A DNA stretch of 64,000 nt, taken from NCBI GenBank assembly GCA_963663545.1, contig OY760505.1, positions 160,001-224,000 of the forward strand. The letters run 5' to 3'. Positions 1 through 63,208 of this stretch are shown here, piece after piece (within the stretch, counting starts at the first letter, position 1; each line of letters begins with the position of its first letter). Below the pieces are notes generated by a model. It was given only the letters and a program-made list of their open reading frames with translations. It was not told the DNA's origin and made no database searches. The position numbers and the translations under genes are program-made. This DNA comes from Candidatus Delongbacteria bacterium (GTDB lineage: Bacteria > CAIWAD01).

Positions 1-2749
1 AGTCGATTTCACCGCTGCGCGTGCTATCTCCAAGCAAGGCAGCGGGTTGCAGCATGTAGAGCCGATGCACATCTTCGAGCGTGCTGGTTTCCTCGATCGT
101 CACACGTGTATCCGTCAGCAGATCTGGCACGGGCTCGGCGCGTATCACGGCATCTAGACTCACGCCTGCAACACGCGTCTGCCTGCCTGTGCTGGTGGTA
201 AGCGCGATGTAGTTGCCGTCGCTGTCGGGTACAAAAACCTCGGGATTGAAAGGATCCCGGCTATAATCGCCCTGCAGCGAATCGGTCTCGATGTACTGTG
301 TGATACGTTCTTGGACCAGCCGATTGTCTGCGCCGTAGGAAAGACTCCAGCTCACAAGATCACTACGCGAGCGCAACTCGAGCAGGGCCACATCGCGGAC
401 AGTATTGCTGCTGTCGGCATTCGTGTAGCGACGTACGCGATGACTCCAGTCGAGCTCACCCGAAATGGGGCCCGACACCTCCATGCGCAGACGGCTTTGG
501 TCGATGGTCACATCACGCGCCCATTCCCCTTCTTCCATCGCAAAACGACCGCGATGCGTATGTGATACATCGGCGTGCAGCCAGTTGAGCAGCTGACGAC
601 CTGCCGCAGCGCCGTATTGGGCAAAGCGTTCTCCACTCCGCAAACCGCTCGTATAATGAGTATCAAGACGTTCGGCCAGATAACTGGATTGTATCACGGC
701 GCGATGAAAATCCCATCCCAGCACAAGATCCTGTGTATGAAATCCCTGTTCCTGTGTACTGGAGCTGAGCTTGCGCCACGAACCCGTCGCCGTCATCCAC
801 GGCCCTAGCCCCGGACGTAGGCTCAACGAAGGTGCCAGGCGTCGACTTTTTGTATCACCGCGTTCAAGCTGCGTAAGGGCAAACTGCGCTTTCATACTAT
901 CTGAGCGCACTAGGCTTGTGCTCAAGTCTATGCGATCAAGCGCTTCACTACCCGATCGCGCCAACCCCCATTCCCGTTCGAACTCAACTTCGTCGGTGGC
1001 ACTCAGTGTGCGAAAATCGGCGGCTTCACGGGTCAGCCGGGCACGAGCGCCCGGGCGTCCCAGGTTGTGTTCGCCCAGTTCAAGCCGATTACCCTGCCAG
1101 CCGAAAGCGCTACGCAGGGCCACGCCCACGTTGTCTTCGTCCTCCAGTCCCGAGAGCAGGTTCAGGTCGCGATTGGAAACAGCCCCCTCTAGATCCAGGC
1201 TGAATTGCCCGAGATCAGCGTGATACACGGCATCGTACTGTTCCAACGCGGTGGGTGCTACAAGCTCGATGACCGGCGCCCAGACGCCCTGACCCTCACC
1301 CGCGAACTGGAACCAAGCATTTCCGCTGCTCGTGAAGTTGCGACTGTAGTCGCCGCGCATCAATCCCTGACTATCGTAGCCCAGTTCGGTGAAGCGCAGC
1401 TCGTAAATGAATTCTTCCGCCAAGCTATCGGGGACATCCTCGGCATATTCGTATTCACCCCATTGGCCGAGATCAGCGTTGATCAGGCGGTAATGCCCCT
1501 CACCCGGGTCAACTTCGCGCACACCGCTTCCGTAGGCCACATCGATAGAGTCGCCCACGCTTGCCAGAAGGGTGCGATCCTCGTCATCGAGAAAGCTGTC
1601 CAGCGGATCGTCCGGGTCGTCGCGCTCGCTGACCACCGCCAAGCGCAATTCCTGATTGGGTGTGGGCGTGAACCAGGCTTCTGCGCCCGTCAGCGTTCGA
1701 GCATAAATGCGCTCGCTGTACTGGTACTCCACCGCAATTCGGCTCTCTGCACTAATGGGGCGCCGCGCAGTAAAGGTCAGCTGTCCCAGCGAGTAATCCA
1801 TGATGTAGTCGCCGTTTTGTCCACGCGAAAGCGACTGACCGTCAAGCCAGACGCGCTCGCTGCCCGCCAGTACGACAATCAGATCGCTACCCTGCTCGCT
1901 CAGAAGCTGCCATGGGCCTTGAACGCCTTCGCTGCCGTTGAATTCCATGCGATGGTAACGACCGCGGGCTCCCGCCAGATGCACCCGAGCTCCGCCGTAG
2001 CGCGTACTGCGCCAGCCCGCCTGCACTCCATCGACGGTGCGCGCGTAGCGCAAATAGTCACCGCTGTTCAGGTCCAGGTCAAAATCGCCAAGAGTGGCCT
2101 CCCAGTGCGGACTGCGCAGCTTGATGTGAATGCGGTCGACCTCTTCGAGCGATTGACTGCGGCCCTCGGCCTGCACGGGCAGGTTACTGTCGCTCAGGAA
2201 GGCTTCCACGTCCACATCGCGGCCAACACAGCCCTCCACCTTCAAGCGCAATCCGGATTCCATTCCCACATCGCCACCACTGCCGATGCTGATGCCGCGC
2301 AGAAAGCTTCCGCTTGTGCGCAGACGACCGTATTCGCTATTGGTGGCAATAGCGCCTTGAACAGGAGCTTGTCGTGCGCTATCGCTGGCCAGAGTGTCGG
2401 CGCCGATCCAGGGCAGACGTGGGTATTGTTGATACTCGCCACGTAGATCCAGCCGTAGCTGACGCCAGCTAAGCTGCAATGGACTACCGAATAGTGTGGA
2501 CGTGTAGAGGCGCACGATCCCGTCAACCTCGTCCAGGCTATAATCGCGCCCCTCGATGAGTTGCCGCCCGCTTTCGCTCAGAATGAAACTGCCCGGCTCG
2601 ATGGGAACCGCCTCCACCCGCAATTCCGGTGCGCCCAACAGAATCAGCTGGTGTTCGTTGTTCAGGCTCAAAGAATCCAGCACGCTTTGCGCACAAAGGA
2701 AGGGCGCAAGGAGCACGAGCAAGAAAAGCGACAGCGCCGGCAATCTCAC
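1..2749 (-). CDS. Large exported/outer-membrane protein of a conserved FCB-type family (partial; 3' end lies beyond the window start)
   Basis: Manual minus-strand translation of the 5' part from GTG 2749, which overlaps the stop of the upstream gene (GTGA): signal peptide VRLPALSLFLLVLLAPFLCA, then LRTSGSFLRGISIG..GLRLKVEG..FLSDSNLPVQAEG..LGDF and FNGSEGVQGPWQL..VLAGSERVWLDG..DYIMDYSLGQLTF..IAVEYQYS. Its absence from the ORF track is consistent with no stop inside the window. Confidence 0.75.
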   Translation of the reverse strand, partial: MRLPALSLFLLVLLAPFLCAQSVLDSLSLNNEHQLILLGAPELRVEAVPIEPGSFILSESGRQLIEGRDYSLDEVDGIVRLYTSTLFGSPLQLSWRQLRLDLRGEYQQYPRLPWIGADTLASDSARQAPVQGAIATNSEYGRLRTSGSFLRGISIGSGGDVGMESGLRLKVEGCVGRDVDVEAFLSDSNLPVQAEGRSQSLEEVDRIHIKLRSPHWEATLGDFDLDLNSGDYLRYARTVDGVQAGWRSTRYGGARVHLAGARGRYHRMEFNGSEGVQGPWQLLSEQGSDLIVVLAGSERVWLDGQSLSRGQNGDYIMDYSLGQLTFTARRPISAESRIAVEYQYSERIYARTLTGAEAWFTPTPNQELRLAVVSERDDPDDPLDSFLDDEDRTLLASVGDSIDVAYGSGVREVDPGEGHYRLINADLGQWGEYEYAEDVPDSLAEEFIYELRFTELGYDSQGLMRGDYSRNFTSSGNAWFQFAGEGQGVWAPVIELVAPTALEQYDAVYHADLGQFSLDLEGAVSNRDLNLLSGLEDEDNVGVALRSAFGWQGNRLELGEHNLGRPGARARLTREAADFRTLSATDEVEFEREWGLARSGSEALDRIDLSTSLVRSDSMKAQFALTQLERGDTKSRRLAPSLSLRPGLGPWMTATGSWRKLSSSTQEQGFHTQDLVLGWDFHRAVIQSSYLAERLDTHYTSGLRSGERFAQYGAAAGRQLLNWLHADVSHTHRGRFAMEEGEWARDVTIDQSRLRMEVSGPISGELDWSHRVRRYTNADSSNTVRDVALLELRSRSDLVSWSLSYGADNRLVQERITQYIETDSLQGDYSRDPFNPEVFVPDSDGNYIALTTSTGRQTRVAGVSLDAVIRAEPVPDLLTDTRVTIEETSTLEDVHRLYMLQPAALLGDSTRSGEID

Positions 2750-4000: not shown

Positions 4001-6187
4001 ATGGATGCCTACGCCCTGCTCTGCGAAAATCGCCACCACGACCCATATGAGTTTCTTGGCCAGCACCCCCTGGACGAGGGATGGGTACTGCGCGTCTGGG
4101 CTCCCGAATGCCGTAGCGTCGCGCTGCTGCAAAAGGCGCGAGGTGGCAAGCTCAAAGCACTGGATCTCGCTGCCGACAAATCGCGTCCCGGTCTTTTTGA
4201 GATCCAGTTGGAGGCCCGTCTGGAGCCACGCGACGCGCACTTGCGCTACACGGCGCACACGGGCGACAGTTGGGAAGCCATTACGCCTTACATCTTCGAT
4301 CCGCTATTGGGCGACCTTGATCTGCATTTGATTGGCGAGGGCCGCCATCTGCGTCTCTGGGAAATCCTGGGTGCGCACCATGTATCGCATCAAGGAGTCG
4401 AAGGCGTGCGTTTTGCCGTTTGGGCGCCTACGGCCAATGGCGTGAGCGTGGTTGGTGAATTCAATCACTGGAACGGCCGCCGACATCCCATGCGCGCGCG
4501 CGGTGCCAGCGGCGTATGGGAGCTCTTCTATCCCGGCCTTTGCCCCGGCGATCTCTACCGTTTTGAGATTCATGGCGCCGACAGCCAGATTCACATCAAG
4601 AGCGATCCCATGGCGCGCTGTTCGGAGCTGCGTCCCAGCAACGCATCCCGCGTGGCTGCCAAACGCCAACACCAGTGGAAGGATGACGAATGGATCACTC
4701 GTCGACGCAGCAGTGATCCGCTGAATCGCCCCATCTCCATTTATGAAGTGCACATGGGAAGCTGGCGCCACCCCTGGGATGGCCGCAGCTTTCACAATTA
4801 CCGCGAGCTGGGCGGCATGCTGGTGGAGTATTTGCGCGAGATGAATTTCACCCATGTAGAGCTGATGCCGGTGATGGAACATCCGCTAGATGCCTCCTGG
4901 GGATATCAGGTCACGGGTTACTTCTGCCCCACTAGTCGCTACGGCAGCGCCGATGATCTGCGTGCTATGGTGGATGAGCTGCACCAGGCGGGATTTGGTG
5001 TGATCCTGGATTGGGTCCCCGCGCATTTTCCAAAGGACGCACATGGCCTGCGCCGCTTCGATGGTAGCCCGCTGTACGAGCACGCCGATCCGCGACAGGG
5101 CGAGCACCCGGACTGGGGTACGATGGTCTTCAACTTCGGCCGCAATGAGGTGCGCAATTTCCTCATCTCAAATGCCTTGTATTGGGTTGAGGAATTTCAC
5201 ATTGACGGTCTACGCGTCGACGCCGTTGCCTCCATGCTCTACCTCGACTACAGCCGCAAGGAGGGCGAGTGGGTGTCCAACCGCTTTGGCGGCCGCGAAA
5301 ACCTGGAAGCCATTGAGTTTCTGCGCGAATACAACAGCACGCTCTTTCGCGAACACCCGGGCATACTCTCCATCGCCGAAGAAAGCACCTCCTGGCCCGG
5401 TGTATCACGCCCCGTCCATCTGGGCGGCCTGGGCTTCAACTACAAGTGGAACATGGGCTGGATGAACGACACCCTGTCCTACATGCAGAAGGACCCGGTG
5501 CATCGTCGTTTTCACCACAATCTGCTGAGCTTCTCAATGGTCTACGCCTGGACGGAAAATTTCCATCTGGTTTTGAGCCACGACGAAGTGGTACACGGCA
5601 AGGGCAGCCTGCTGAGTAAAATGCCCGGCGACGAGTGGCAGCGATTCGCCAACCTGCGTCTGCTCTACGGCTGGATGTGGGCGCACCCGGGCCGGAAGCT
5701 GCTGTTCATGGGCGGCGAGCTGGCCCAGTGGCAGGAATGGCAGGACGAGGGTGAGCTGAACTGGAGCCTCCTGCAGAGTGAACCGCACGCGGGTGTGCAA
5801 AACCTGGTGCGGGATCTGAACCGTCTCATGCAGCAAGAGGCATCTCTGTGGCAATGCGACCTGAGTCCCGAAGGCTTCCGCTGGATCAATGTGCACGACG
5901 CAGAGAACAGCACCTTTGCCTTTGTGCGCATGGCCGGGGATCCGGCAGATCATCTGGTGGTGGTGGCCAACTTCACTCCTGTTCCTCGCACAACTCGCTA
6001 CATCGGCGTTCCCCACGAGGGCGCCTACGACGAGGTTTTGAACACCGACGCTGCAGTTTACGGTGGCAGCAATCTGGGCAACGGCGGACGGGTGTGGGCG
6101 GAGCGCACGGCCTGGGACGGTTTCCCCTGCAGGCTGTGTATCACACTTCCTCCGTTGGCGATGCTCATTTTTAAACCGGGACACTAG
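4001..6187 (+). CDS. glgB: 1,4-alpha-glucan branching enzyme
   Basis: FAVWAP, IYEVHMGSW, SWGYQ, DWVPAHF, GLRVDAVASM, AEEST and SHDEVVHGKGSL GH13 motifs; 728 aa. Confidence 0.97.
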   Translation: MDAYALLCENRHHDPYEFLGQHPLDEGWVLRVWAPECRSVALLQKARGGKLKALDLAADKSRPGLFEIQLEARLEPRDAHLRYTAHTGDSWEAITPYIFDPLLGDLDLHLIGEGRHLRLWEILGAHHVSHQGVEGVRFAVWAPTANGVSVVGEFNHWNGRRHPMRARGASGVWELFYPGLCPGDLYRFEIHGADSQIHIKSDPMARCSELRPSNASRVAAKRQHQWKDDEWITRRRSSDPLNRPISIYEVHMGSWRHPWDGRSFHNYRELGGMLVEYLREMNFTHVELMPVMEHPLDASWGYQVTGYFCPTSRYGSADDLRAMVDELHQAGFGVILDWVPAHFPKDAHGLRRFDGSPLYEHADPRQGEHPDWGTMVFNFGRNEVRNFLISNALYWVEEFHIDGLRVDAVASMLYLDYSRKEGEWVSNRFGGRENLEAIEFLREYNSTLFREHPGILSIAEESTSWPGVSRPVHLGGLGFNYKWNMGWMNDTLSYMQKDPVHRRFHHNLLSFSMVYAWTENFHLVLSHDEVVHGKGSLLSKMPGDEWQRFANLRLLYGWMWAHPGRKLLFMGGELAQWQEWQDEGELNWSLLQSEPHAGVQNLVRDLNRLMQQEASLWQCDLSPEGFRWINVHDAENSTFAFVRMAGDPADHLVVVANFTPVPRTTRYIGVPHEGAYDEVLNTDAAVYGGSNLGNGGRVWAERTAWDGFPCRLCITLPPLAMLIFKPGH

Positions 6188-6209
6188 TTTGCTGAAGTGG
6201 CGCAGAGAT

Positions 6210-9200
6210 GTGGCGCGCGTTCGCCCGCCCCTGCTGCCGGCGGTACTTTTCTGCTTGCTGGCACTGACAGGCGTACTGCGCGCCTCCACCGAAGCCGTGC
6301 TGGTGCTGCACTCCTATTATCCCGACTACGTCTGGACCCAACAGCTCAACAAGGGCATCAGTGACATCCTGAATGCGCGAGCCAATCTTGAGCTTTACTA
6401 CGAATACCTGGACTCGCGCCGTCGCTCTGATGACGAACTGAAGCGCGACTACTACAACCTGCTACAGCGCAAGTACAGCAACGTGCAGCTCAAAGCAATC
6501 ATTGCCTGTGATAACTCTGCACTGGCTTTTCTGAAACGCTACCCCGATCTCTTGCCCGGCGTGCCACTCGTTTTCTGTGGCATCAACAATTACAGAGCAG
6601 AACTACTGGCCGACGACCGCCCGAGTACAGGAACGGCAGAAGTGCTGAAGATCCGCGAAACGGTGGAGCTTGCCCTTTCCCTTCACACTGGATGCAAGCG
6701 TGTGATTCTGATCAGCGATCACCACGTACTGACGGCGCAGCTCACCGAAGAAGAGGCGCGCAAACAGCTCGCTCCGTTGGCGGATCGTATCACGCTGGAA
6801 CAGGTGCCCGATCTCCCCTTTCCTGCCATGTTGCGTTGGCTGCAGAAGCAGTCGACAGAGGATACCATTGCACTGATGCTGCTCTACAGCAAGGATAGTG
6901 ACGGACGTAACCTGCCCGTCATTTTTGCAATGGACCGTATCCGCGAGGCTTGCCCTGTGCCGATCTACGCGGTTTGGGATTTCTATCTGGGCCATGGACC
7001 GGTTGGCGGAGTGATGCTTAGCGGCTATGAAACGGGACGCGACGCTGGCCGGCGCACATTGAATCTGCTCCTCGGGCGTGATACATCCACCATGCCCATC
7101 GATACACTGGAGGCCAGCCATCTCTGTTTCGACTGGGAAACTCTGCAAGCCTTGAATATCCCACCCCATCTGCTGCCGCCACAGGCGCACATCGAAGGAC
7201 GCCCGCGCAGCCTGGCTGAGCGTTTGGGGATCTGGTATTACATCCTGCTTGGTGTGCTGGCCCTTGAGACCCTGCTGGTTACGGCTCTGATCAGCATGAC
7301 TCTGCAACGTAGACGCACCATGGCGGGATTGCAACTGAGGCAGTTCATCGTCGATCAGGCAGACTTCCCCATTCTGGTCGTCGATCGCTACGGGCGCATC
7401 CAGTTCATCAATCACAGCGCCTGCCAAGTTCTGGGCTATCTGCGCGATCAACTACTGGACAAGCACATCAGCCTTGTGTCGCCAGAAGTCGACTTCTCGC
7501 CGGAACGCTTCCCCACCACCTATGAAGAGACCGTCAGCCATAGTGAAGTGGGGCGCACCACCTTCCTGCGAAACCGCCAAGGGCGCGATCTGCGCTATCG
7601 CCTGAGAATGGCGCCCATCAAACGCGGTTCCGAAACCCTATGCTCCATAACCGCCATCGACCAGCGTGACCTGCAGCGTCAACTGGAAGTGCTGCAATAC
7701 GCGTTGAAGCACGCCGAGCTGGGCATCATGCTCTGTCACAAAGACGGCAGCATTTTCTACGCCAATGATATGCTCTGCACTCTCACCGGTCGCGATCGAG
7801 AAGAGCTTCTGCACCAACAAGTCAGCCAGCTGGATCCCCGCATCAGCGAAGGCTGGGTAGATCGCCAGTGGAAGCATCTGCGTCGCCAAGGCGTGTTACG
7901 CATGCAGATGAAGCGCAACGTGCCGCAACCCGGCAAGGGCCGCTGCGAATTGTGGCTCGAAATCACCATCAATTACGTGCAGATGGAAGAGTCGGAGTTT
8001 GCCTGTGTGTTCTTGCGCGACGAAAGCGCAAGCAAAGCGAGCGAACAAAGTCTGCGTTTACTGGCCGCCAAGAAAAGTCGTATTCAACGGGCTGCGCGCC
8101 TGGGTGATTTCACAATTGACATGGAAAAGCGCATGGCGACTCTTTCCGAGGTCGCCGCCGAGCTCTTCGGCTTTGAGGACAAGCCCGGAACTTACCCGCT
8201 GGAGGAATTGACACGGCGCGTCCATCCGGCAGACCTCGAAATGATCCAGCAATTCTTGTCGCTGCCACGCGAAGAGGGTGTACTGGAAATTCCGCCGCAC
8301 CGCGTGTTCAGCGCCACGCAAGGCGAGGTCTGGCTGCGAATGCGTGGACGTATCTGCCGCGACGCTGCAGGTAAAATAGTCTCTGTCGAGGGCAGCCTGC
8401 AGGACATCACGGCGCAGATTCTCACGGAACAGGATCTGCGCAGACAGCACGATTTCTGTGTTTCACTGGTCGAGACACTGCCTCTGGGGGTCAGCGTGAA
8501 GGACTTGCGCCGCGATCTGGCCTATACTGTTTGGAACGCGGAAATGGCGCGTATCACGGGCAGAAGCGCAGGCCAGGTACTGGGCCGCAAAGACGAGGAG
8601 CTGCATAGCGAGGTCCTGGCCCGACGTATGCGACGCGAGGATTTGCGGCTGCTGGAAGCGGGTAACGCAAAGACCGAACGTACTCTTGACCTGTCGACAG
8701 AGAAGGGAACCCGCATCGTTCATCGCACGCGCATTCCGCTGCTGGATGCGCAGGGTGTTCCCACGGCGCTGATCACGCTTCTACAGGATGTCAGCGAACA
8801 GGTGACACAGGAGCGGGCGGAACGTGGCAGCGAAAAGATGCGCGCCCTGGAACAGCTCGCCAGCGGTGTATCACGCAACGGTGGTGAGCAGTTCAAGGCC
8901 ATTCTTGGCTACGCCACGCTCCTGGAAGAGGAGCTGACGGAGCAGCGTATGCGCGATTACGCCAGTGCCATTGTTCATGCCTCGCAACAGGGTGCCGATT
9001 TCACGCGTCTATTACAGGCCTTTGCCCTGGATGCAAAACGCATGCAGGTTCACGTGGACATGCACCGACTCCTGCACGATACTCTGCGCACTTTTAGCGA
9101 GGAGTTGCGTCCCGGTATTGTGCTACAGCAGTTTCTCAAGGCCGAGGACGCACGCATTCTTGGAGATCCGGATCAGCTGCAGCTGGTATTGCAAAGCCTG

Positions 9201-9950
9201 CTGAGAAATGCCGTGGAAGCGCTTCCAGCCACCGGACGGGTCACGATGACGAGCGAGGTAGTGAGCATTAGCGCCAGCGACGCGCAGCGATTGTTCGGGG
9301 AAGAAATGAACCCGGGCCGCTACTTCAAACTTTGTATCACAGACACGGGTTCGGGAATCGAACAGGAGGTACGCGGCAGGATTTTTGAGCCCTTCTTCAG
9401 CACCCGTGACCCGCAACTCCATCTTGGCCTTGGCCTGGCCGCTGTGCGCGGCTGGGTCGGCGATCACGGCGGCTACATTCACGTCTACAGTGAAGTGGAT
9501 CACGGCAGCAGCTTCTCGCTCTACCTGCCGCTGGCAACCCAGACAAGCTTGATGCAGGGAACTCAGGTCACCCATCGCCCGGGACGCATTTTGCTAGTGG
9601 ACGACGAGGAGTTGGCGCGCACGACCTATAGCCGTATGCTGGAACGCCTCGGCTACGAAGTGGAAGCCTATGCGGACCCGCACAAGGCGCTGTTGCACTA
9701 CGAAAACTCGCCCGAGACCTTTGCGCTGGTGGTGCTCGATATGGTTATGCCGGGGCTTTCGGGCAAAGAGTGCTTCGACCGCATCAAAGCGCACAATGAA
9801 ACACAACCCATTCTTCTGATCTCCGGGTTTGCCCTTGACGGCGACATGCGCAAAATGCTGAGCCAAGGGCTGGATGGCTATTTGCAGAAACCCATTACCG
9901 GCGAGATTCTGTCCCGCAAAGTGGCTTCCATCCTGGGCAGCGACGAGTAA
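6210..9950 (+). CDS. Membrane hybrid sensor kinase-like protein (ABC-type periplasmic binding domain, multiple PAS, HATPase, receiver); phospho-acceptor His absent
   Basis: VLVLHSY periplasmic domain, TM helix, about four PAS domains, N/G1/F/G2 boxes (RNAVEA, DTGSGI, IFEPFFST, GLGLA), receiver VDDE..DMVMPG..KP. The H-box reads LASGVSRNGGE. Start chosen at GTG 6210. Confidence 0.88.
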   Translation: MARVRPPLLPAVLFCLLALTGVLRASTEAVLVLHSYYPDYVWTQQLNKGISDILNARANLELYYEYLDSRRRSDDELKRDYYNLLQRKYSNVQLKAIIACDNSALAFLKRYPDLLPGVPLVFCGINNYRAELLADDRPSTGTAEVLKIRETVELALSLHTGCKRVILISDHHVLTAQLTEEEARKQLAPLADRITLEQVPDLPFPAMLRWLQKQSTEDTIALMLLYSKDSDGRNLPVIFAMDRIREACPVPIYAVWDFYLGHGPVGGVMLSGYETGRDAGRRTLNLLLGRDTSTMPIDTLEASHLCFDWETLQALNIPPHLLPPQAHIEGRPRSLAERLGIWYYILLGVLALETLLVTALISMTLQRRRTMAGLQLRQFIVDQADFPILVVDRYGRIQFINHSACQVLGYLRDQLLDKHISLVSPEVDFSPERFPTTYEETVSHSEVGRTTFLRNRQGRDLRYRLRMAPIKRGSETLCSITAIDQRDLQRQLEVLQYALKHAELGIMLCHKDGSIFYANDMLCTLTGRDREELLHQQVSQLDPRISEGWVDRQWKHLRRQGVLRMQMKRNVPQPGKGRCELWLEITINYVQMEESEFACVFLRDESASKASEQSLRLLAAKKSRIQRAARLGDFTIDMEKRMATLSEVAAELFGFEDKPGTYPLEELTRRVHPADLEMIQQFLSLPREEGVLEIPPHRVFSATQGEVWLRMRGRICRDAAGKIVSVEGSLQDITAQILTEQDLRRQHDFCVSLVETLPLGVSVKDLRRDLAYTVWNAEMARITGRSAGQVLGRKDEELHSEVLARRMRREDLRLLEAGNAKTERTLDLSTEKGTRIVHRTRIPLLDAQGVPTALITLLQDVSEQVTQERAERGSEKMRALEQLASGVSRNGGEQFKAILGYATLLEEELTEQRMRDYASAIVHASQQGADFTRLLQAFALDAKRMQVHVDMHRLLHDTLRTFSEELRPGIVLQQFLKAEDARILGDPDQLQLVLQSLLRNAVEALPATGRVTMTSEVVSISASDAQRLFGEEMNPGRYFKLCITDTGSGIEQEVRGRIFEPFFSTRDPQLHLGLGLAAVRGWVGDHGGYIHVYSEVDHGSSFSLYLPLATQTSLMQGTQVTHRPGRILLVDDEELARTTYSRMLERLGYEVEAYADPHKALLHYENSPETFALVVLDMVMPGLSGKECFDRIKAHNETQPILLISGFALDGDMRKMLSQGLDGYLQKPITGEILSRKVASILGSDE

Positions 9951-11704: not shown

Positions 11705-13051
11705 CTATTGATTGTACGTGTCCACCTGACGGTATTCGCCGAAGCCGCGGGAATCGACAAAGAGGAACTCGCGGCCCGAGTCCTCATACACCCAGCGTTC
11801 CCACGGCGGAGTGTTGACGTCGCCGCCTGAACGCTCGACGTAATCGGGATCGCCGTAGATCATGTAAATGCGACCGCGGTCGCTGCGCCAGCCTGCAAAG
11901 CGTGCCCAACCGAAGCGAGCGTCGGCATAGGCCGCGCGGCGGTAGTACTCGCGCATCAACTCGTTGAGTTCGGTTTCGGGCGTGGGGTCGACCTTCTCCC
12001 AGAAGTCCCGGAACATGTCCTGCTTGAAGCCCTGCGGCGCATCACGCATGTTGCGGTAGTGGCGCCCGTGCATCACGTAATGAAGTTGCTCGACGGCCAG
12101 ATTCAGATCAAAGCCTTCTCCGGGCGTATGCTTCCAGTGCACGCGAAACTGCTCGTGGCGTTCTTCACTGCGCACCAATTTGCCGTGGTCGAATTCTTCA
12201 ACAAGCAATTCAAAAGTGTACTCGCCTGACCCCAACTCCCCACCGGGAATCCGCAGGAGATTGCGCGCCAATCCCGCCGGAAAATGGCGCTCGAGCTGAC
12301 GACTGTGACGCACACGCTTGTGATGGTCGAGGATGCGCGTGCTTAGGCGCAGGCTCAGACTGTCGCGGGAGTAGAGTTCATAGAAGACGGCGAAGTCACG
12401 GCTTTGCTCGTTCAAACTGCCAAAACGCACCGGACGCGCGGTCAATGGATCGGGTTGGGTTGTGTCTGCGTCCTGAATCAGCCACACACCCGCCAGATCC
12501 CAGGGATCGCGACTGGGCTCGCTGACCTTGCACTCACCGTGCAGCGTTTGACGATGACGGGAGTTCAGGTCGACGAATTCCACCCACCACTCGCAGGGAC
12601 CGGGGCTCAGTTCCACTTCGAAATGATGCCAGCGCAGACCATCCTTTGGCATCGTCTCATCAAAGATGGGCGTCTCGTGCTGAAAACGCTGGTAGCGCGA
12701 CGCGAGCAACTGCTTGCCTCGGCGCACTTCCAGGCTGATCTCGTACTGGGCGCGATAACCCAATAGACCAGCTGCTCGATCCCCCGACAGGCTATCGTCG
12801 GCGATCTGAGCCAGACGATCCCCCTGGCACGGCCAGTTCTCGATGTGATCCAAACTGCGTCGCCTGAATTGCAGATCCGCCACATCCAGCATGCACGTGA
12901 ACACCTGTACCGGCGGTTCGTCGGCACTGCGGTAATGCTCGTTGAACTGCACAGCAAAGTCGGGCTCCCAGGCCTCCATATCGCCCGGCCGGTCCTGCGC
13001 CAAAGCAACAGTTCCCATCAGCAACAGGAGCCATAAACAAAGGGGCTTCAT
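11705..13051 (-). CDS. GWxTD domain-containing exported protein
   Basis: Signal peptide; FWEKVDPTPETELNELMREYYRR..GWRSDRGRIYMIYGDPD..W.Y..FLFVD. Confidence 0.88.
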   Translation of the reverse strand: MKPLCLWLLLLMGTVALAQDRPGDMEAWEPDFAVQFNEHYRSADEPPVQVFTCMLDVADLQFRRRSLDHIENWPCQGDRLAQIADDSLSGDRAAGLLGYRAQYEISLEVRRGKQLLASRYQRFQHETPIFDETMPKDGLRWHHFEVELSPGPCEWWVEFVDLNSRHRQTLHGECKVSEPSRDPWDLAGVWLIQDADTTQPDPLTARPVRFGSLNEQSRDFAVFYELYSRDSLSLRLSTRILDHHKRVRHSRQLERHFPAGLARNLLRIPGGELGSGEYTFELLVEEFDHGKLVRSEERHEQFRVHWKHTPGEGFDLNLAVEQLHYVMHGRHYRNMRDAPQGFKQDMFRDFWEKVDPTPETELNELMREYYRRAAYADARFGWARFAGWRSDRGRIYMIYGDPDYVERSGGDVNTPPWERWVYEDSGREFLFVDSRGFGEYRQVDTYNQ

Positions 13052-16192: not shown

Positions 16193-16446
16193 GCTTCTCC
16201 CTCCGTGTCGAAGAAGAGGCCACCCACGGCGCCGCCGTCAAGATCGGGCTCGTCGTCTTCCTTCAGAACGCGCATCAGCTCCTGCTCCACCTTCGCCAGC
16301 TTCTCAGCACAATACTTGTGCAGGCCAATGCCTTCGCGATAGTGGGCCAGGCTGTCCTCCAGGCCGATTTCGCCTTCCTCTAGCTTCTCGACGATTTCCT
16401 CGAGCCGGGCCAAGGCCTGCTCAAAGCTGGGTTTCTTTTCCTTCAT
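16189..16446 (-). CDS. xseB: Exodeoxyribonuclease VII small subunit
   Basis: SFEQALARLEEIVEKLEEGEIGLEDSL..Y.EG..L...C...L. Confidence 0.95.
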   Translation of the reverse strand: MKEKKPSFEQALARLEEIVEKLEEGEIGLEDSLAHYREGIGLHKYCAEKLAKVEQELMRVLKEDDEPDLDGGAVGGLFFDTEGEA

Positions 16447-39854: not shown

Positions 39855-39859
39855 CCAAA

Positions 39860-41368: not shown

Positions 41369-41380
41369 CGCTCTTCCAGG

Positions 41381-41413: not shown

Positions 41414-41424
41414 GTATGACAAGC

Positions 41425-43398: not shown

Positions 43399-43411
43399 GT
43401 TTCTGTCCTTC

Positions 43412-49842: not shown

Positions 49843-49849
49843 GATTTCC

Positions 49850-51400
49850 TCAGGTCAATTGCCGACCACCGCGGCGGTAGCGTTCACGTCGTTTCCAGTG
49901 TTCGCCCACGGTGCCAAGACCGGCCACCCAGGCGTTGCCCTCGGCGATTTGCTGCAGCAGATGCTGGTAGTGGTCGCGTCGATCCGGAAAATCCTCGCGG
50001 CAAAGCACGTGCGGATGCCAGTTGATGGTGAGCAGGCTTCCCGTACGCCGCGTCAGATCCAGTAGGCGATGGCTGCTTTCAAGCGCCTCGTGGGCCTCGA
50101 GTTTCATCTCGTCGTAGAGCTGGCTGTCCATCAGCACCAGCGGAATCTCAAGCAGCTCGTGGGCGCGGCGCGAAGTCAGATTCCAAGGGTAAAAAGGCAG
50201 ACCGGTCCCCGCGCGATAACCGGGCGAATCATTCCACCCCAGACTGCTGTCGACCGTCAGGCCCGACAGTTCCTGATCCTGCCAGGTCTGCTCCCTGTCA
50301 CAGCGTAGCCAGTGCTGGCGAACTACGGTGATACGATCGCCGCTCAGTCGCTCGATGAGTGCCCGTTCGTCCTGCAGGCGAGCGCGATCCCCCATGGTGT
50401 ACCAACCGGCGTGCAGGGCCACTTCACGTCCGCGTTCCTTCAGTCGTGTCAGTAATTCGTTGACCTGAGTGCGTGATACATGGTAGCGATAAGTCTGATG
50501 ATCATGGCTTTCCGCCAGAAAAAGGAAACTGGACATCAAGCCCCAATGCTCCTCCAGATCCGCCATTTCCTCGACGAGAAACCAGGGATCACGACCACCG
50601 CGCAGGCAGTGTATCACTTCGCGCCACTCGGTGGCCAGCCTGCGCCAGCGCGTGGACATGGCGTAGAGAGGCGTACGTAAAAGCAGATGTAACACGCTGC
50701 GAGCGCGCCATTTGTAGAGCATGTCAACGTCGTGGCTCAAACATACTGCCCAACGATGATTCTTCGGCCAGCGCGGCATACACACGGGCGCACCAGCGGC
50801 ATCGCTGCGCAGATCAAGCAGGTTCTGCAAAAATTGCAGCAGGCGGTCAATCCAGGGATAATCGACAACTTTGTGCGCCGCCATCCAGGAGCCTGCCGAG
50901 GAAGCAGCACGCGCCGCCTCGCGAAACTCGGGACGGGTTTCCTCTACCCGCGCCAACCAGCGGAACACCGGACCCAACGGATCGAAACCAAGCTCGATCA
51001 AGGTGGTGGCACCCTCCTGCCGCACCTGAAAAGGACTGTGGCTTTCGTGGTCGCGATAGCGCCAGGGAACACCATCGTGCCTGGCCCAGCCGCGGTATTC
51101 GCCAAACACGGGCAGCGGTCCAGGCTCGATCCAGGCTTTCTGCCGTGATGCATTTCGGTCATCGAACTGATAGGGAATCAGCAGCACAAGGTGCAGATCA
51201 GCAGGAAGACTCAGCCCTTCGGGCGCACCCACCACAATCAGGCGCTTCAGGCCGGTGCAAGGTTCAGTGGCGCGTAACACACGCAGATTGACACCCAGCG
51301 CGGAAGCGATGAAATCCATCGCGTACTGCAACTCGGAGCGACGATGTTCAGGGCAGGCCAGAATAAGGCCCAGGCTTTCGATGGCAGCTTTCACTGCCAC
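49850..51400 (-). CDS. Polysaccharide deacetylase-like protein
   Basis: LSHDVD, EVALH, RQHWLR, DSSLG..GYRAGT..P, EIPLVLMD, WHPH. Confidence 0.8.
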   Translation of the reverse strand: MAVKAAIESLGLILACPEHRRSELQYAMDFIASALGVNLRVLRATEPCTGLKRLIVVGAPEGLSLPADLHLVLLIPYQFDDRNASRQKAWIEPGPLPVFGEYRGWARHDGVPWRYRDHESHSPFQVRQEGATTLIELGFDPLGPVFRWLARVEETRPEFREAARAASSAGSWMAAHKVVDYPWIDRLLQFLQNLLDLRSDAAGAPVCMPRWPKNHRWAVCLSHDVDMLYKWRARSVLHLLLRTPLYAMSTRWRRLATEWREVIHCLRGGRDPWFLVEEMADLEEHWGLMSSFLFLAESHDHQTYRYHVSRTQVNELLTRLKERGREVALHAGWYTMGDRARLQDERALIERLSGDRITVVRQHWLRCDREQTWQDQELSGLTVDSSLGWNDSPGYRAGTGLPFYPWNLTSRRAHELLEIPLVLMDSQLYDEMKLEAHEALESSHRLLDLTRRTGSLLTINWHPHVLCREDFPDRRDHYQHLLQQIAEGNAWVAGLGTVGEHWKRRERYRRGGRQLT

Positions 51401-51542
51401 AAGATAGCACCGGCGGAGCGTTCCCTGCTCCCTGTATCACGAATAACATCGGTATCACAGAATTTGTTAACGCTAAGCTCAATTCCAGGCTTCCGGCTGA
51501 CGATAGTCCTGCCTGACGTTTCCTGCTAGCTATGAGGATGAT

Positions 51543-52883
51543 ATGCTTACCACCCTGCTCTTTTCCCTTGGTCTGCCCTTGAGTGCATTTGCCGGCTATG
51601 CCCTCTCCAAAAAATTCTCTGCCCGTTCCACGTGCGACAACGAAAGTGATACACAGGTCCAGGAGACCCTGAACAACGTACAATCGCCCATGATGGCCAT
51701 TGATCGCGACTTCAACATAGTCCGTATCAACACCGCAGGTGCCTCACTCGGTGGACGACGCCCGGAAGAGCTGGTGGGTACGAAGTGTTATGAACTCTTT
51801 CGCACCGGCCACTGCAGAACAGAGAAATGCGCCCTGGCTCGAGCGATGAAAGAGGGAAAGGTGATCACCGCGCGCACCTCGGCGAAGCCAGGTGATAACG
51901 AGTTCCCCATTCTCTACAGCGGCTCACCTACATATGACAACGAGGGCCGTATCACGGGCGCCATCGAATACGTGCAGGACATCCGCGCACTGGTAGATGC
52001 CCAGAACCGCACCCTTTCCTGTGCATCACGCCTCAGTGGATCCGTTGACGAGCTGAGTGAAGTGTCGTCCAATATGAAGCAACGCACTCTGGAAATGAGC
52101 GCGGGCTCCGAGCAGGTCGCGGGTGCAGCGGTTCAGGTCCGTGGTAACTTCACCACAGTGACCGCCGCCGTGGAAGAGTCGCGCGCCATCTTCCACAACA
52201 TTGCCTACTCGACACAGGAGCTTTCCTCCTCGATCAACGAGATTTCCCAAAGCACTCAGGAGGCAGCCACCCTTACTCGCGAAGGCGTAGATGTGGCCAA
52301 CCGGCTGGCAAAGCGCATTGAAGAGCTGGACAAGGCCTCGCGCGAAATCGGCGGCATTATCCAGGCCATCGTGGCCATCAGCGAGCAGACCAAACTGCTT
52401 GCGCTGAATGCGACCATTGAAGCGGCCCGTGCAGGCAACTACGGCAAGGGTTTTGCCGTTGTCGCCAACGAAGTCAAGGAACTTAGTCAGCAAACCAACG
52501 ATGCCATTGTGGATATTCAGGCCAAGGTGGGTATGATCACCGACTCCAGCCGCCTGACATCCAACGACATCAGCGTGATGAACGAATACATGCAGAGCAT
52601 CTTCGGCACGGTTGAGAGCATCGCCGGCGCACTGGAAGAGCAGAGCGCGACGACATCAGAAATCAGTTTCAGCGTCAGCGAAGCCGTAACTGGCATGGAT
52701 GAAGTAACACGCAACATGGCCGAAGCGAATCAGGCTGTGGGCGACATCGCCGATCAAACCGTGGAAATCAGTCAGCATTTGCGTGGCCTCAACGAAGCCA
52801 GCCTGACCGTTTCCGGCAATTCGAGCCTGCTTGTGGACTTGAGTATGGAGCTGGCCGTGGCCGCCGAGGACCTGACCAACTAG
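51543..52883 (+). CDS. Methyl-accepting chemotaxis protein with PAS domain
   Basis: PAS domain (GTKCYELF...C); [35 protein letters not shown]. Confidence 0.93.
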
Positions 52884-52909
52884 ACATGACTACCGCTTCG
52901 TGGGGAAGC

Positions 52910-52938
52910 AAAACCCCGGACGCGAGTCCGGGGTTTTT
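52910..52938. terminator. Bidirectional Rho-independent terminator
   Basis: AAAACCCCGGAC-GCGA-GTCCGGGGTTTTT between convergent genes. Confidence 0.85.
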
Positions 52939-52959
52939 GTGTACCCATCATCGTGTCCG

Positions 52960-53697
52960 TCAGCGTTGTTCCAGAAAAGCAGCGATTTGTCGTGATACGG
53001 CCAACGGAGCTTCCATGGCGGCCAGATGGCCCACATTGCCGGGAATCACACTCCAGCGCCCGTGAGGAATCAAGTCCGCCAGCTCGCGCATCATGGCAGG
53101 TGGAGTCAACTGATCCTGGGCACCTCCCAGACATAAAACGGGTTTCTGCCAGGCACTGAGCGCATCGCGCGTATCACGACGATCCAACATCATGCGATGC
53201 TGCCGGGCCATCAGTGTAGGTCCCAGACGCTGGCACATGGCGCGGACACGCGGAAACAGCTTGTCATCCTCCAGGCTCTGCTGGCTGAGGATCTTGGGCA
53301 AAAAGCCATCCAGTACACTCTGAAAGCGCCCGGCTTCGAGAGTGGCAATGACGGTTTCGCGTGTATCACGCGCTTCCAGAGTATCAGCGGCAGCGCGCGT
53401 ATCCATGAGGATCATGCGATTCACCAGTGCGGGGTATCGCAGTGCCACTTCCTGGGCGATGTAGCCGCCCATGGAGGTTCCGGCAATATCGATGCGACGA
53501 AGAGCCCGTTTCTTCAACAGGTCAACAAGCTCGTCCGCTGCAGAGGGAATGGATTCCTCACCATCGCTGCGTATCACCAGCACACGTCGGCGACGCCCAA
53601 GTTCCTCGACCTGGTGGTGATACATTTCGCTGTCGCAAAGAAGCGCGGGGATCAGGACGAGTGTGTCGCCCTGTCCCCGCTCAAGTTCAATTCGCAT
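52960..53697 (-). CDS. Alpha/beta hydrolase
   Basis: GTSMGG nucleophile elbow, GAQDQLTP, GHLAAMEAP. Confidence 0.9.
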   Translation of the reverse strand: MRIELERGQGDTLVLIPALLCDSEMYHHQVEELGRRRRVLVIRSDGEESIPSAADELVDLLKKRALRRIDIAGTSMGGYIAQEVALRYPALVNRMILMDTRAAADTLEARDTRETVIATLEAGRFQSVLDGFLPKILSQQSLEDDKLFPRVRAMCQRLGPTLMARQHRMMLDRRDTRDALSAWQKPVLCLGGAQDQLTPPAMMRELADLIPHGRWSVIPGNVGHLAAMEAPLAVSRQIAAFLEQR

Positions 53698-53702
53698 GTC
53701 CT

Positions 53703-56150
53703 CTACCAGCTCTGGCTAAGACGGAAGAGCACCAGCAGATAGCTTTCGTCGCTGCGGTCGCCGCCGTAACTGCGGTAATCCAGATTGGCGGTCAGCTGCA
53801 TGTTCTTCAGCAGCTTGTAACGCGCGCCCAGGACCACATCGAAACGCGAGTAGTCATTCTTCTCCGCGTTGGCCACCTCGGCTTCGCTACTCACCGATTG
53901 CATTTGCAGACGCAGGCTTCCTTGCAGCGTGTCGTCAAAGAAATCCTGCACCACACCGGCGCGCAGGTTGAAGGAATTGTAATCCATCATCGCGTCTTCG
54001 TCGTAGGCTACGTTGTAGATGCCAGCACCAAGGGTCGTGCGCGTAGCACGCAGAAGCTGGGTGCGCAGTCCGGCATCGAGTTGCAGCGTTGACGAAGACT
54101 GATCCTGACGCAAATCTTCAAGTACAAAACCGTCGTTGTCGGTCACGAAGAGATGGCCGATATCGTCGCTCTTCTGCTGCAAGCTGAAGTTCAACGAATA
54201 GCGATGGTCCAGATCCAGCAGCTTGGCTCCGCCGGCAACGCCAATCTGCACCTGCATGAGGGTGGCCTCGATCTGCTGTTGCTGCAGGTTCTGAATCTCA
54301 TCTGCACTTGCGGCAGCCATGTCAGAAGCCAACAGGTCGTCGGCGCGATCACCGGCCTCGTTGCTTTCAGAGCTGACATCCACACCCAGGTTGAGCTGCA
54401 GGTCCATCTGCCGCGGGAACCAGCCGACACCGATGTGCATCTGGTTCTGGCTCAGGGTACCCACCGAAGCGTCGTACTGCTTGTCGAGGTTGTTGGTGGT
54501 CAGGCTGTAAAAAGCATCTACGTAACACTGATTCCGACCGAAGCGATAGCGCTCGCCCAGCTTGAACTGCTGACGGTCGGGAGCCAGGAAGCTGTTGCCC
54601 AGGCTGTAGTAGTTGGGGCCAACTCGATGCACATTCAAATAGATGTCGTGCCCGCCGTAGGTCAATCCCCAGTCGCTGAGCCAGGCCAGATTGCTGAGAT
54701 AGTCACCATCGGCCAGGTCCAGCGGAGCGAAATACTCGTTCAGGACGATGAAGTCTTCGAAGTCAGCAGGACTGGGTAGGTCGCCCAGATCGAGGCTGTC
54801 CATCTCGGCATCGGTGAAGGGACCACCTGAGATGTCGCTGTTGTAGAAACTGAAACCCGCCTGGTTGAGGAAACGCAGGCGTCCCTGCATGGCGCGATAG
54901 TTCAGTCGCAGACCCAGGACGGCGTTGTCCACGGGGCGACTGGTGCTCAGGGTATCGACGGCGTCGGTGACGAAGTCGACCATGCTGTCCACGTCGTCCT
55001 TGGCCTTGAACACGCTGAGGCCGGCCTCAAAACCACCGGTCAGTTTGCCAAAGCGCATATCCAGGGCCATGACATCGCGGTCATAGGTGCCAGCGTACTC
55101 CAATTCCAGCTCGTCGTCATCGTTCAGCCCCGTGATGGGGTCACGGGCTTCGCGGCTCTGGCCGATGGTGAACCCCAGGCCAAATCGACGCGCCTGCCAA
55201 TCCAGCTCGAAACCGCGTACGCGAGTGCCTGAAAGAACAGCGCGCCCGTAACTGGGACGGCGATCGCCAATGCCCAAGGTCAGTCCGCCGCGTGATACTT
55301 CGGCCTCGAAACGCGACTGAGGCTGCAGGATGTCGGATTCCCAATCCTGCGCGGCGAGCAGCACACGCCCCTTGTAGGTCCAGGGCTTGCTGGGATTTGC
55401 CGTGCTACCGCGGAAACTGAATTGCGCAGCGTGAAAGCGCTCCCACTCCTGTTCACGGCCTTCAACGCGCTCCATGTTGAATTCTTCCCAGGCGTCGGCG
55501 TGAAACTCTCCGGCGTAGCGCTTGGGCTGACGCGCACTCAGCGTGATACGCTGTGCGGGCAGGCTGCGACCCTGTGTATCACGCACCAGTACTTCCAGCA
55601 CATGTTCACCGGCGCTCAGTTTCCCGCTCCAGGTTACCAGCCAGGGATCACTCTCAACTCCCGCCAGCGGACGGCCGTCCAGGCGCAATTCGACCTGGGC
55701 GGGATCCATCTCGCCCAACAAGGGAGACAGGGCGATAAAGGCTTCTTCTTCGGAGCTGAAGGACTCTTCGGAAAGCAGCTGATAATACTCGGCCACTGCC
55801 TCAGGAGCTAGGCTGATGCGGTAGTTGCCCGAGGCGGGCAAACGGTAGCGTTCACCTGCCTGGGTGAACTCTAGCGCGTACTCCAGCGAGGTCGTGCGTG
55901 TAATCGTGCCGGGCACGATAAACAGAATCTCGCCCGGACTTTGCTCGACAGGATCGAGCTCGTGGATCATGCCACCTTCTACCATGACGCGCAAGAGCGC
56001 GTCCTCGACCGCAGGTGAAGCCGGATCACGGAAGACCAGCTCCAGATCGCTTCCGCTGGTCGCCGTCGCCGGAACTTGATGCTGCCAGGCGGCAGACGCC
56101 GGCAGCACAGCCAGCAAAAGGCCGATCACCAACAAAACGCCATGCTTCAT
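53703..56150 (-). CDS. Exported protein, probable outer-membrane beta-barrel with N-terminal Ig-like domains
   Basis: Signal peptide MKHGVLL..ASA; GDRRPSY...LSGTRVRG, RVGPNYYSLGN; alternating beta-strand pattern; C-terminal W. Confidence 0.75.
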   Translation of the reverse strand: MKHGVLLVIGLLLAVLPASAAWQHQVPATATSGSDLELVFRDPASPAVEDALLRVMVEGGMIHELDPVEQSPGEILFIVPGTITRTTSLEYALEFTQAGERYRLPASGNYRISLAPEAVAEYYQLLSEESFSSEEEAFIALSPLLGEMDPAQVELRLDGRPLAGVESDPWLVTWSGKLSAGEHVLEVLVRDTQGRSLPAQRITLSARQPKRYAGEFHADAWEEFNMERVEGREQEWERFHAAQFSFRGSTANPSKPWTYKGRVLLAAQDWESDILQPQSRFEAEVSRGGLTLGIGDRRPSYGRAVLSGTRVRGFELDWQARRFGLGFTIGQSREARDPITGLNDDDELELEYAGTYDRDVMALDMRFGKLTGGFEAGLSVFKAKDDVDSMVDFVTDAVDTLSTSRPVDNAVLGLRLNYRAMQGRLRFLNQAGFSFYNSDISGGPFTDAEMDSLDLGDLPSPADFEDFIVLNEYFAPLDLADGDYLSNLAWLSDWGLTYGGHDIYLNVHRVGPNYYSLGNSFLAPDRQQFKLGERYRFGRNQCYVDAFYSLTTNNLDKQYDASVGTLSQNQMHIGVGWFPRQMDLQLNLGVDVSSESNEAGDRADDLLASDMAAASADEIQNLQQQQIEATLMQVQIGVAGGAKLLDLDHRYSLNFSLQQKSDDIGHLFVTDNDGFVLEDLRQDQSSSTLQLDAGLRTQLLRATRTTLGAGIYNVAYDEDAMMDYNSFNLRAGVVQDFFDDTLQGSLRLQMQSVSSEAEVANAEKNDYSRFDVVLGARYKLLKNMQLTANLDYRSYGGDRSDESYLLVLFRLSQSW

Positions 56151-56250
56151 GGATTCTCTCCTTCGCGACCACCGCAAAAGGCAAGGCCACACGGACCTGG
56201 GTCCGCGTGGCTCTGCGAGGGGAATGATCGCTAGATTGGTCTTCCCACTA

Positions 56251-56919
56251 CTATTCGTAGTACTCGATAATTAACACTCGCTCTTCGCCGCCATCGCTGA
56301 CAGGAATGCGAATGGTCTTCAGCTGTCCGCGCTCCAGATCGCCCGTGTCGGCGCCCGTTGTCTCACGCAGATTTACATCGCCGCCTTGTGATACACCGGT
56401 GAAGCCCATCACCACATCGCGGGATTCATTGCTGCGCAGGTTGCGCAGGTTCACGATTCCCTCTTCGGTAATGACCGTGGTTTCGCCAGCACCGCCAACA
56501 CGCGTCCACCAGGCGGTTCCCTTCACCGAGGCCACAGAGGTGGGGGTGGCAACGCGGAAACCGCCGCCCTCGCCCGTCACCTGCGTCCACAGGGTGCCCA
56601 GGTCCATCTCGACTTCTTTGCGAACGCCATCTCCGGCGCGATCGACGTGCAGTGTCAACTCCGTCTGCGGCTGCAGCTTGAGCTGGCTGCGATCGTCGGT
56701 AAAGACCAAGACCGCGCGTCCGTCTTCTCCGGTACGTACACGATCTCCGTCCGCCAGACGCATGCCCTGCTGCAGTGCGCTATCGCTTTCGCCCTCGCGC
56801 AGCAAGGTCACCTGCCCGGAGGATTTCACTACCACCGCCACACTCTGAGCCGCTGCATAAGCGCCCATACAAAGGACCAGCAAGGCCAAGAGGCCGGTCC
56901 GGATTTTCACATTCAACAT
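56251..56919 (-). CDS. Exported FecR-domain protein
   Basis: G..L.DGDRVRTG.DG.A...F.D.S, G.LW..V, FRVATPTSVASVKGT, EG.V. Confidence 0.85.
   Translation of the reverse strand: MLNVKIRTGLLALLVLCMGAYAAAQSVAVVVKSSGQVTLLREGESDSALQQGMRLADGDRVRTGEDGRAVLVFTDDRSQLKLQPQTELTLHVDRAGDGVRKEVEMDLGTLWTQVTGEGGGFRVATPTSVASVKGTAWWTRVGGAGETTVITEEGIVNLRNLRSNESRDVVMGFTGVSQGGDVNLRETTGADTGDLERGQLKTIRIPVSDGGEERVLIIEYYE

Positions 56920-63208: not shown

Follow-up and report, generated by a model that had tools for sequence, protein, structure and literature searches.

We describe a short, hyper-abundant DNA word, YGTATCACV (Y, C or T; V, A, C or G), in a 64-kb stretch of a Candidatus Delongbacteria genome (assembly GCA_963663545.1, contig OY760505.1, positions 160,001 to 224,000; hereafter the window, numbered from its first base). 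The word is a strong and genuine signal in these 64 kb of one genome, and codons do not explain it. A search of both strands located its seven-base core, GTATCAC (GTGATAC in the opposite orientation), at 71 sites spanning positions 142 to 62986, with 46 copies on the + strand and 25 on the - strand. The density is 1.11 per kb, about one copy every 0.9 kb. On these sequence features we consider the likeliest account, at a probability of roughly 0.35, to be that YGTATCACV is a word of the type represented by the DNA uptake sequences (DUS) of Neisseriaceae, the uptake signal sequences (USS) of Pasteurellaceae and the highly iterated palindrome HIP1 of cyanobacteria, recognised in duplex form and built up by a drive linked to natural transformation.

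An over-represented word of nine positions

Among all 6- to 10-mers of the window, the top-ranked over-represented family consists of GTATCAC and its extensions. The core is enriched 17.5-fold over the order-1 expectation and 8-fold over order-3. The original prediction, which drew attention to the word from the letters alone, rested on a manual count of about 71 copies against 5–6 expected from base composition; the count proved exact, and dinucleotide shuffles place the expectation at a mean of 3.89 copies (maximum 9), with 0 of 100 shuffles reaching 71.

The bases that adjoin the core are also constrained. The preceding base is T in 43 copies, C in 23, G in 3 and A in 2, so that the pyrimidine anticipated for about 66 copies is present in exactly 66 of 71. 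The following base is G in 34, A in 19, C in 15 and T in 3. The extended form TGTATCAC occurs 43 times against 1.0 expected, close to the roughly 44 (estimate ~1) given earlier, and GTATCACG occurs 34 times against 1.2. Alignment of 30 bases on either side of the copies uncovered extra information at -1 and +1 only. The signal thus comprises nine positions, Y-GTATCAC-V, with about 15.6 bits, and no AT-rich or palindromic flank or longer motif was present within those 30 bases. Because the flanks are uninformative beyond -1 and +1, the word is not a fragment of a longer repeat. Just one pair of copies, at 18628 and 19048 inside LysM repeats, has flanking sequence in common.

On the + strand, the 46 copies of GTATCAC start at 142, 691, 852, 5402, 6138, 6787, 8551, 8868, 9334, 10806, 11471, 18424, 18558, 18628, 19048, 19713, 20643, 22370, 24021, 24736, 25161, 28071, 31617, 32645, 34477, 36307, 38977, 47464, 47950, 48331, 49094, 49458, 50611, 51434, 51452, 51949, 53171, 53363, 53571, 55576, 58909, 61716, 61749, 62182, 62346 and 62980. 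The 25 copies on the - strand, which appear as GTGATAC on the + strand and span 300 to 61458, start at 300, 562, 1220, 7078, 16663, 19369, 20494, 23784, 24524, 25017, 43075, 48397, 48484, 48855, 50328, 50473, 51646, 52992, 53617, 55292, 55543, 56388, 59146, 59785 and 61452.

The word is a DNA-level signal

Genes were called from open reading frames (ORFs) and checked against Pfam and NCBIfam. Sixty-two copies lie in ORFs and nine are intergenic, in a window that is about 89% coding. In the sense orientation the word is read in frame 0 (GTA TCA C) 14 times, in frame 1 (xGT ATC ACx) 11 times and in frame 2 (xxG TAT CAC) 3 times; in the antisense orientation, it is read in frame 0 (GTG ATA C) 13 times and in frame 1 (xGT GAT ACx) 21 times. 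The sixth frame, which would contain TGA, is empty, and all five stop-free frames are used. The pyrimidine at -1 is kept in every frame class and in eight of the nine intergenic copies.

A codon- and dipeptide-aware null had been set beforehand as the refuting test, and the enrichment persists under it. Synonymous codons were shuffled within each gene, which preserves the protein sequence and with it all dipeptides, and the nine intergenic copies were left untouched. Two hundred such shuffles yielded 17.4 ± 2.5 copies (maximum 24), the nine fixed ones included, against 71 observed; codon permutation yielded 13.9 ± 1.9. Gene by gene, the protein-preserving null predicts 7.7 copies where 63 are observed, an 8.2-fold excess; the 63 include one copy that falls where two genes overlap and so enters twice. 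The null errs on the side of caution, since codons contributed by the motif itself are part of the shuffled pools. GTA, TCA and ATA are minor codons at 12%, 8% and 6% of their families, in agreement with the earlier claim that they are disfavoured, and 10% of GTA, 15% of TCA and 29% of ATA codons sit inside copies of the word.

The encoded proteins carry the same imprint. Tripeptide RDT occurs 13 times against 4.5 expected, RIT 10 times against 3.0 and [RCSG]DT 26 times against 13.7, and the reversed control tripeptides are flat (TDR 1, TIR 4). The proteome is thus visibly bent by the word. Taken together, the use of five frames and of intergenic DNA on both strands and the excess over the synonymous null bear out the view that no peptide effect is at work: YGTATCACV is a DNA-level signal, neither a peptide nor a codon effect.

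Unrelated loci and neighbouring words

For comparison, we used 80 bacterial loci matched by the RimO gene of the window (13048–14370). All match at 43% identity or less; there is therefore no close relative among the listed loci, and the 80 serve as negative controls only. Across their 1.31 Mb, GTATCAC is at chance, with 85 copies against 76.1 expected. When the strongest 7-mers of 67 sequences were ranked (63 loci of at least 10 kb and the four quarters of the window), quarters of the window came first, third and sixth. An order-1 enrichment of 5- to 10-fold is common for the top, codon-driven 7-mers of the control loci. Over the synonymous-shuffle null, the top words of 11 control loci reach 1.5- to 4.6-fold, most in one or two frames, and GTATCAC under the same automatic gene calls reaches 7.4-fold in five frames. 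In one control locus (L018), ACTCCAC occurs 26 times in 11 kb with just 6 copies inside called ORFs, which suggests a non-coding repeat array in that genome.

Single-base variants of the core show a graded pattern. One-mismatch relatives at the three central positions are mildly enriched, namely GTAACAC (17 against 3.5 expected, 4.9-fold), GTATTAC (10 against 1.6, 6.3-fold) and GTGTCAC (20 against 8.8, 2.3-fold), and those with a change at position 1, 6 or 7 lie around the chance level (0- to 2.0-fold). The impression that variants such as GTGTCAC and GTAACAC are common was therefore sound, though their enrichment is far below that of the core. Two relatives are low, GTATCTC (0 against 3.9) and GTATGAC (1 against 4.1), yet neither is significant among the 21 neighbours tested, and we dropped the biased-repair signature that these counts had seemed to offer. 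Separately, other words containing GTA or TAC stand 3- to 7-fold above dinucleotide expectation (GAGTAC, 48 against 14.8; CGTAGA, 49 against 17.2; TGTAGTA, 12 against 1.6), indicating that TA in this genome tends toward a GTA/TAC context.

Both orientations are enriched

The + strand of the window is C-rich, with negative GC skew in 13 of 16 four-kb bins, and 80% of coding bases lie on the - strand. Judged from GC skew and gene strand only, the leading strand is probably the - strand, on which GTGATAC predominates (65%). The ratio of + to - copies is 8:4 in + genes, 30:20 in - genes and 8:1 in intergenic DNA, in the same direction throughout, and sense/antisense ratios do not differ between + and - genes (Fisher p = 0.12).

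The overall 46:25 split departs from 50:50 (p = 0.017) but not from the 57:43 expected from composition (p = 0.19). We dropped strand bias as evidence after computing this strand-specific expectation. Order-1 expectations by strand are 2.32 copies on + and 1.76 on -, so that the word is enriched 20-fold in one orientation and 14-fold in the other. Massive enrichment in both orientations argues for a reader of duplex DNA that accepts either orientation, rather than for a polar single-strand signal. The composition-level strand share likewise disfavours a polar signal of the Chi or FtsK-orienting polar sequence (KOPS) kind, and 65% of copies in one orientation falls short of the polarity of KOPS and other architecture-imparting sequences. 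Orientation relative to GC skew had been proposed as the means of telling Chi or KOPS from DUS or HIP1; at 65% against 57% expected, the comparison leans toward an orientation-blind reader without going further.

Copy number follows coding opportunity

Copies are clumped along the window (coefficient of variation of gaps 1.29; Kolmogorov–Smirnov test against an exponential, p = 0.016), and much of this clumping tracks the GC content of genes at third codon positions (GC3). For the 37 genes outside a low-GC block described below, motif density falls with GC3 (Spearman -0.69, p = 2.7e-6), from 1.86 per kb in the remaining genes to 0.41 per kb in those with GC3 of at least 0.70. Relative to their own nulls, these two classes are enriched 9.1- and 6.0-fold, respectively. 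Since the excess is similar in both, accumulation appears roughly proportional to what coding sequence allows.

The two extremes of this distribution are a motif-dense and a motif-free block. The dense block (47464–56394) holds 25 of the 71 copies in 8.9 kb; the GC3 of its genes is 0.61–0.72, and they encode glycosyltransferases, a VimE-like deacetylase, a chemotaxis receptor (MCP), an alpha/beta hydrolase, an unknown 829-aa protein and a FecR-domain protein. The alpha/beta hydrolase gene (52960–53697) carries five copies in 738 bp. We aligned its product with one 80%-identical and one 51%-identical relative. The motif tripeptides RDT, RDT and VSR are common to the hydrolase and the 80%-identical relative, and MYH (MYR in the relative) and VIR (VLQ) differ, so some copies coincide with amino-acid differences. 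At this protein level, three of the five motif sites are motif-compatible in the 80%-identical relative, about the chance expectation for a set of sites too small to weigh. The motif-free housekeeping block (11705–16446, - strand) encodes a GWxTD protein, RimO, FtsY, NAD kinase and XseB and has 0 copies in 4.7 kb; its GC3 is 0.71–0.76, and the synonymous-shuffle expectation is likewise 0.00 per gene.

Within the dense block, two direct copies lie 18 bp apart (51434–51458) in the divergent intergenic region between the VimE-like deacetylase gene and a PAS-domain chemoreceptor gene; by simple arithmetic, chance alone would give about 1.4 pairs at this distance or less at the density of the window. 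A block linked to the type IX secretion system (T9SS; 32800–46794, - strand) is motif-poor, with 3 copies in 14 kb. It encodes a subtilase, an NHL-repeat protein, a PorV/PorQ-family protein, a 1018-aa TonB-dependent-receptor-like protein, a protein with a T9SS sorting tail and a weak match to the ExeM/NucH extracellular nucleases (61 bits, cut-off 300), and a 747-aa protein without a family match. Elsewhere, glgB (4001–6187) and a 1295-aa PAS histidine-kinase ORF (6063–9950) overlap by 125 bases as called, and the start codon of the kinase probably lies further downstream.

A low-GC block with a probable integron

The block at 25443–30940 (GC about 0.49) contains an integron integrase and four divergent cassette-like ORFs and offers an internal control of foreign DNA. 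The integrase gene (30134–30940, + strand) matches TIGR02249 with 267.7 bits against a cut-off of 265, over profile positions 6–254 of 315, and its product may be C-terminally short. The region 24796–30940 is a probable chromosomal integron, with tRNA-Thr adjoining it. The cassette-like ORFs encode beta-lactamase-fold, SEC-C-motif and FGE-sulfatase-domain proteins and one unknown. A strict regular expression for the core of attC, the recombination site of integron cassettes, found no match, and a repeat scan gave partial attC-like features only: core words (GTTAGGT / ACCTAAC) on either side of the ORF at 28168–29193, and a 17-nt inverted repeat at 28024–28094.

The five ORFs of the block (4.4 kb) contain 0 copies of GTATCAC, and one copy (28071) sits in a spacer between cassettes, beside the 17-nt inverted repeat. 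The integrase gene is followed closely by an exact 27-nt direct repeat (31292–31318 and 31621–31647, 329 bp apart). The later of these two units starts within the motif copy at 31617, and hairpin-like inverted repeats lie at 31561–31604 and 31638–31684.

A proposed origin of the word

The cause of genome-wide filling by one short word is debated, with drive, selection, repair and chromosome structure all under discussion. To our knowledge, sequence-specific DNA uptake is established in two proteobacterial families only, and HIP1 is a recent third candidate. We propose that YGTATCACV is a lineage-specific hyper-abundant word that would be read as double-stranded DNA in either orientation. Copies would originate at their present sites through point mutation, wherever the coding sequence tolerates it, and would be kept or spread through a genome-wide bias favouring word-bearing DNA. 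The most likely source of such a bias is natural transformation, in which motif-bearing DNA of the same species would be preferentially taken up or recombined. The mechanism would then be the molecular drive that has been described for DUS and USS and, more recently, proposed for HIP1.

The window itself displays the enrichment, its DNA-level nature, near independence of orientation, scaling with codon opportunity and absence from cassette-like ORFs. An asymmetric word of about 15 bits, at about one copy per kb, in both orientations, kept at a cost in codons and missing from cassettes matches the words of transformable bacteria, and for this reason we rate transformation-linked drive as most likely. 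We infer the genome-wide extent of the word, uptake or recombination as the biased step, and the existence of a receptor. Circumstantial support comes from the sole competence-related gene of the window, a ComF-family (ComFC-like) gene at 21110–21835 (- strand), for which a double zinc ribbon and a phosphoribosyltransferase domain are predicted; a sequence search for a PDB relative of its product found none.

The fit to uptake sequences is imperfect, and several observations weigh against the proposal. DUS and USS are scarcer in genes than elsewhere, commonly pair as terminator dyads and keep an even spacing (Findlay & Redfield 2009). YGTATCACV, unlike these, is not under-represented in genes (62 of 71 copies in ORFs, with about 89% of the window coding) and is clumped. 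None of the seven intergenic copies in the 24–36 kb interval falls inside the six terminator-like hairpins found there; no intergenic dyad pairs were seen, and the other two intergenic copies are direct, not inverted. DUS and USS also have cores of 9 to 10 nt, against a 7-bp core and nine informative positions of about 15.6 bits here. The absence from cassette-like ORFs is compatible with foreign DNA not yet marked, but as an argument it is weak, since the probability of zero copies is 0.19 given codon opportunity, against 0.005 by raw density. Lastly, the ComF-like match is sub-threshold throughout: NCBIfam TIGR00201 (comF) gives E = 4.5e-19 and 69 bits against a cut-off of 233, and the Pfam domain matches are below their thresholds as well. 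ComF-like genes are, moreover, widespread.

The host belongs to a part of the tree far from the known cases. Among the products of the window are T9SS components, FliL, a GWxTD protein and a chemoreceptor, and its proteins are on record as coming from a contig of 3,721,866 bp. For FtsY, identity is 87% to one protein from a metagenome-assembled genome and at most 71% to the others, and the named relatives are labelled Candidatus Delongbacteria, Calditrichaeota and Candidatus Cloacimonetes. These FtsY relatives place the host in an uncultured lineage of the Fibrobacteres–Chlorobi–Bacteroidetes (FCB) group.

Alternative readings

A Chi-like role is the rival with most in its favour, though we consider it unlikely. 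On this view RecBCD or AddAB would recognise 5'-GTGATACR in single-stranded form on the presumed leading strand, and the encounter would switch the enzyme from degradation to RecA loading. The length fits the 5–8 nt of known Chi sites (Table 3, PMC5959072), Chi sites are likewise over-represented in genomes, and the favoured orientation (46 of 71 copies on the C-rich + strand) places GTGATAC on the G-rich, gene-rich strand. Yet that 65% share does not differ from what composition gives (p = 0.19), and it is marginally below the E. coli Chi figure of 75% (p = 0.055); the disfavoured orientation, of which a polar signal has no need, retains its 14-fold enrichment. E. coli Chi itself is enriched 4- to 8-fold and occurs once per 4.5 kb (PMC5959072), far from the 17.5-fold and one per 0.9 kb found here. 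Chi skew is not universal according to the same source, so the orientation test is not decisive against Chi. The 64-kb window holds no recBCD or addAB genes. Somewhat less probable is that the word is the target of a DNA methyltransferase or of sequence-specific repair, kept by biased correction of the very-short-patch type or by epigenetic retention. A non-palindromic word of 7 to 9 bp resembles Type IIG or Type III specificities, HIP1 is described as holding two methylase sites, and the scarcity of GTATCTC and GTATGAC is what conversion of neighbours to the word would give. Those two depletions are not significant, however, and other neighbours are enriched (GTATTAC 6.3-fold, GTAACAC 4.9-fold). 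Known biased-repair effects are about twofold, far under the excess seen here. No DNA methyltransferase gene lies in the window, where RlmD and RimO act on RNA and protein, and for HIP1 the conservation of sites argues against continual replenishment by biased repair (Xu et al. 2018).

Improbable, too, are dispersed sites for an abundant nucleoid or chromosome-organising protein, whether ParB/Noc-like or another sequence-specific factor. A single base separates GTATCAC from the parS half-site that the original prediction named, an HU/IHF-family gene lies in the window (18150–18437), and the direct copies at 51434 and 51452 occupy a divergent promoter region; such a pair, however, is within chance expectation. 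The 16-bp palindromic parS consensus has 0 matches within 3 mismatches in the 64-kb window, and the copies are single, dispersed and without palindromic extension; on these grounds we rejected the parS reading. We know of no nucleoid protein with thousands of exact 15-bit sites inside genes. A role in chromosome structure has been inferred for HIP1 from its periodicity (Xu et al. 2018). The least probable account, and one that is largely refuted, gives the word no function and attributes its excess to composition (of codons, dipeptides or oligonucleotides), to local repeats or to errors in the assembly. GTA words such as GAGTAC do run above dinucleotide expectation, and codon-driven 7-mers of control loci commonly attain 5- to 10-fold at order 1. 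Against this, the 8.2-fold excess persists under a protein-preserving shuffle that reduces control words to 1.5- to 4.6-fold, and the word occurs in five frames, on both strands and between genes. Only one pair of copies has flanks in common, long intact ORFs speak against systematic base-calling error, and in 80 unrelated loci the count is at chance. The probability left over after these explanations goes to something not yet described.

Significance

More tentative than transformation-linked drive as such is the wider claim that YGTATCACV would be the first self word of the uptake-sequence type outside Proteobacteria and Cyanobacteria. The host would tag its own DNA with about 4,000 copies per 3.7-Mb genome, and tagged DNA would be favoured in natural transformation. 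If so, its 7-bp core would be the shortest such word known, and its genomic habit would be distinct, inside genes and outside terminators, at the cost of rare codons. As an independent case in a distant uncultured lineage, an asymmetric AT-rich word in a GC-rich genome with skewed codons and tripeptides would provide a fresh test of models. The word also offers a handle for its reader protein, a marker for binning and for foreign DNA, and possibly genetic access to the lineage. Should it instead prove to act like Chi or in connection with methylation, the corresponding system would be defined for a group in which none is known.

A full-text literature search in the contexts of over-representation and methylation found no report of GTATCAC as a genomic signal. 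In the literature since 2015, we found no new uptake sequences or hyper-abundant k-mers outside the known families.

Comparison with known systems

As originally proposed, GTATCAC is none of the DUS, USS or HIP1 words compared with it here. Chi sites (GCTGGTGG, GCGCGTG, GAAGCGG and AGCGG; Table 3, PMC5959072) resemble it in being asymmetric, over-represented sequences of 5–8 nt, and the mild excess of GTGATAC on the presumed leading strand is a Chi-like trait. GTATCAC differs from Chi in that it is far denser and more enriched, strong in both orientations, skewed no more than composition predicts, and AT-rich rather than G-rich.

The USS of Pasteurellaceae (AAGTGCGGT, ACAAGCGGT) and the DUS of Neisseriaceae (GCCGTCTGAA) differ from GTATCAC in sequence, and their hosts are proteobacterial where ours is of an uncultured FCB-group lineage. 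Like GTATCAC, they are exact, non-palindromic short words that occur roughly once per kb, on both strands and in several frames. The likeness in density noted at the outset holds, with 0.34–0.87 copies per kb listed for these words by Findlay & Redfield (2009, Table 1). The same study reports that uptake-sequence tripeptides are about doubled in proteomes, that 37–63% of in-gene uptake sequences are in the sense orientation, and that genes with no homologs in related genomes lack uptake sequences, which accumulate after transfer. Inflated encoded tripeptides and absence from foreign-looking DNA are thus features that DUS and USS have in common with GTATCAC, the latter here in one block. Graded enrichment of near-matches is described for words under molecular drive (Bakkali 2007), and uptake sequences under such drive have, like GTATCAC, mildly enriched single-mismatch relatives.

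HIP1 (GCGATCGC) is palindromic and contains the sites of two methylases, whereas GTATCAC is asymmetric, not its own reverse complement, and is not known to have a methylase. HIP1 sites are also conserved between genomes and show a periodicity of 10–90 kb. Like GTATCAC, HIP1 is hyper-abundant both inside and between genes, and the over-representation of GTATCAC falls within the 15- to 300-fold reported for HIP1 (Xu et al. 2018). Long without an explanation, HIP1 is now proposed to be an uptake or transformation signal, the same kind of role that we suggest for YGTATCACV.

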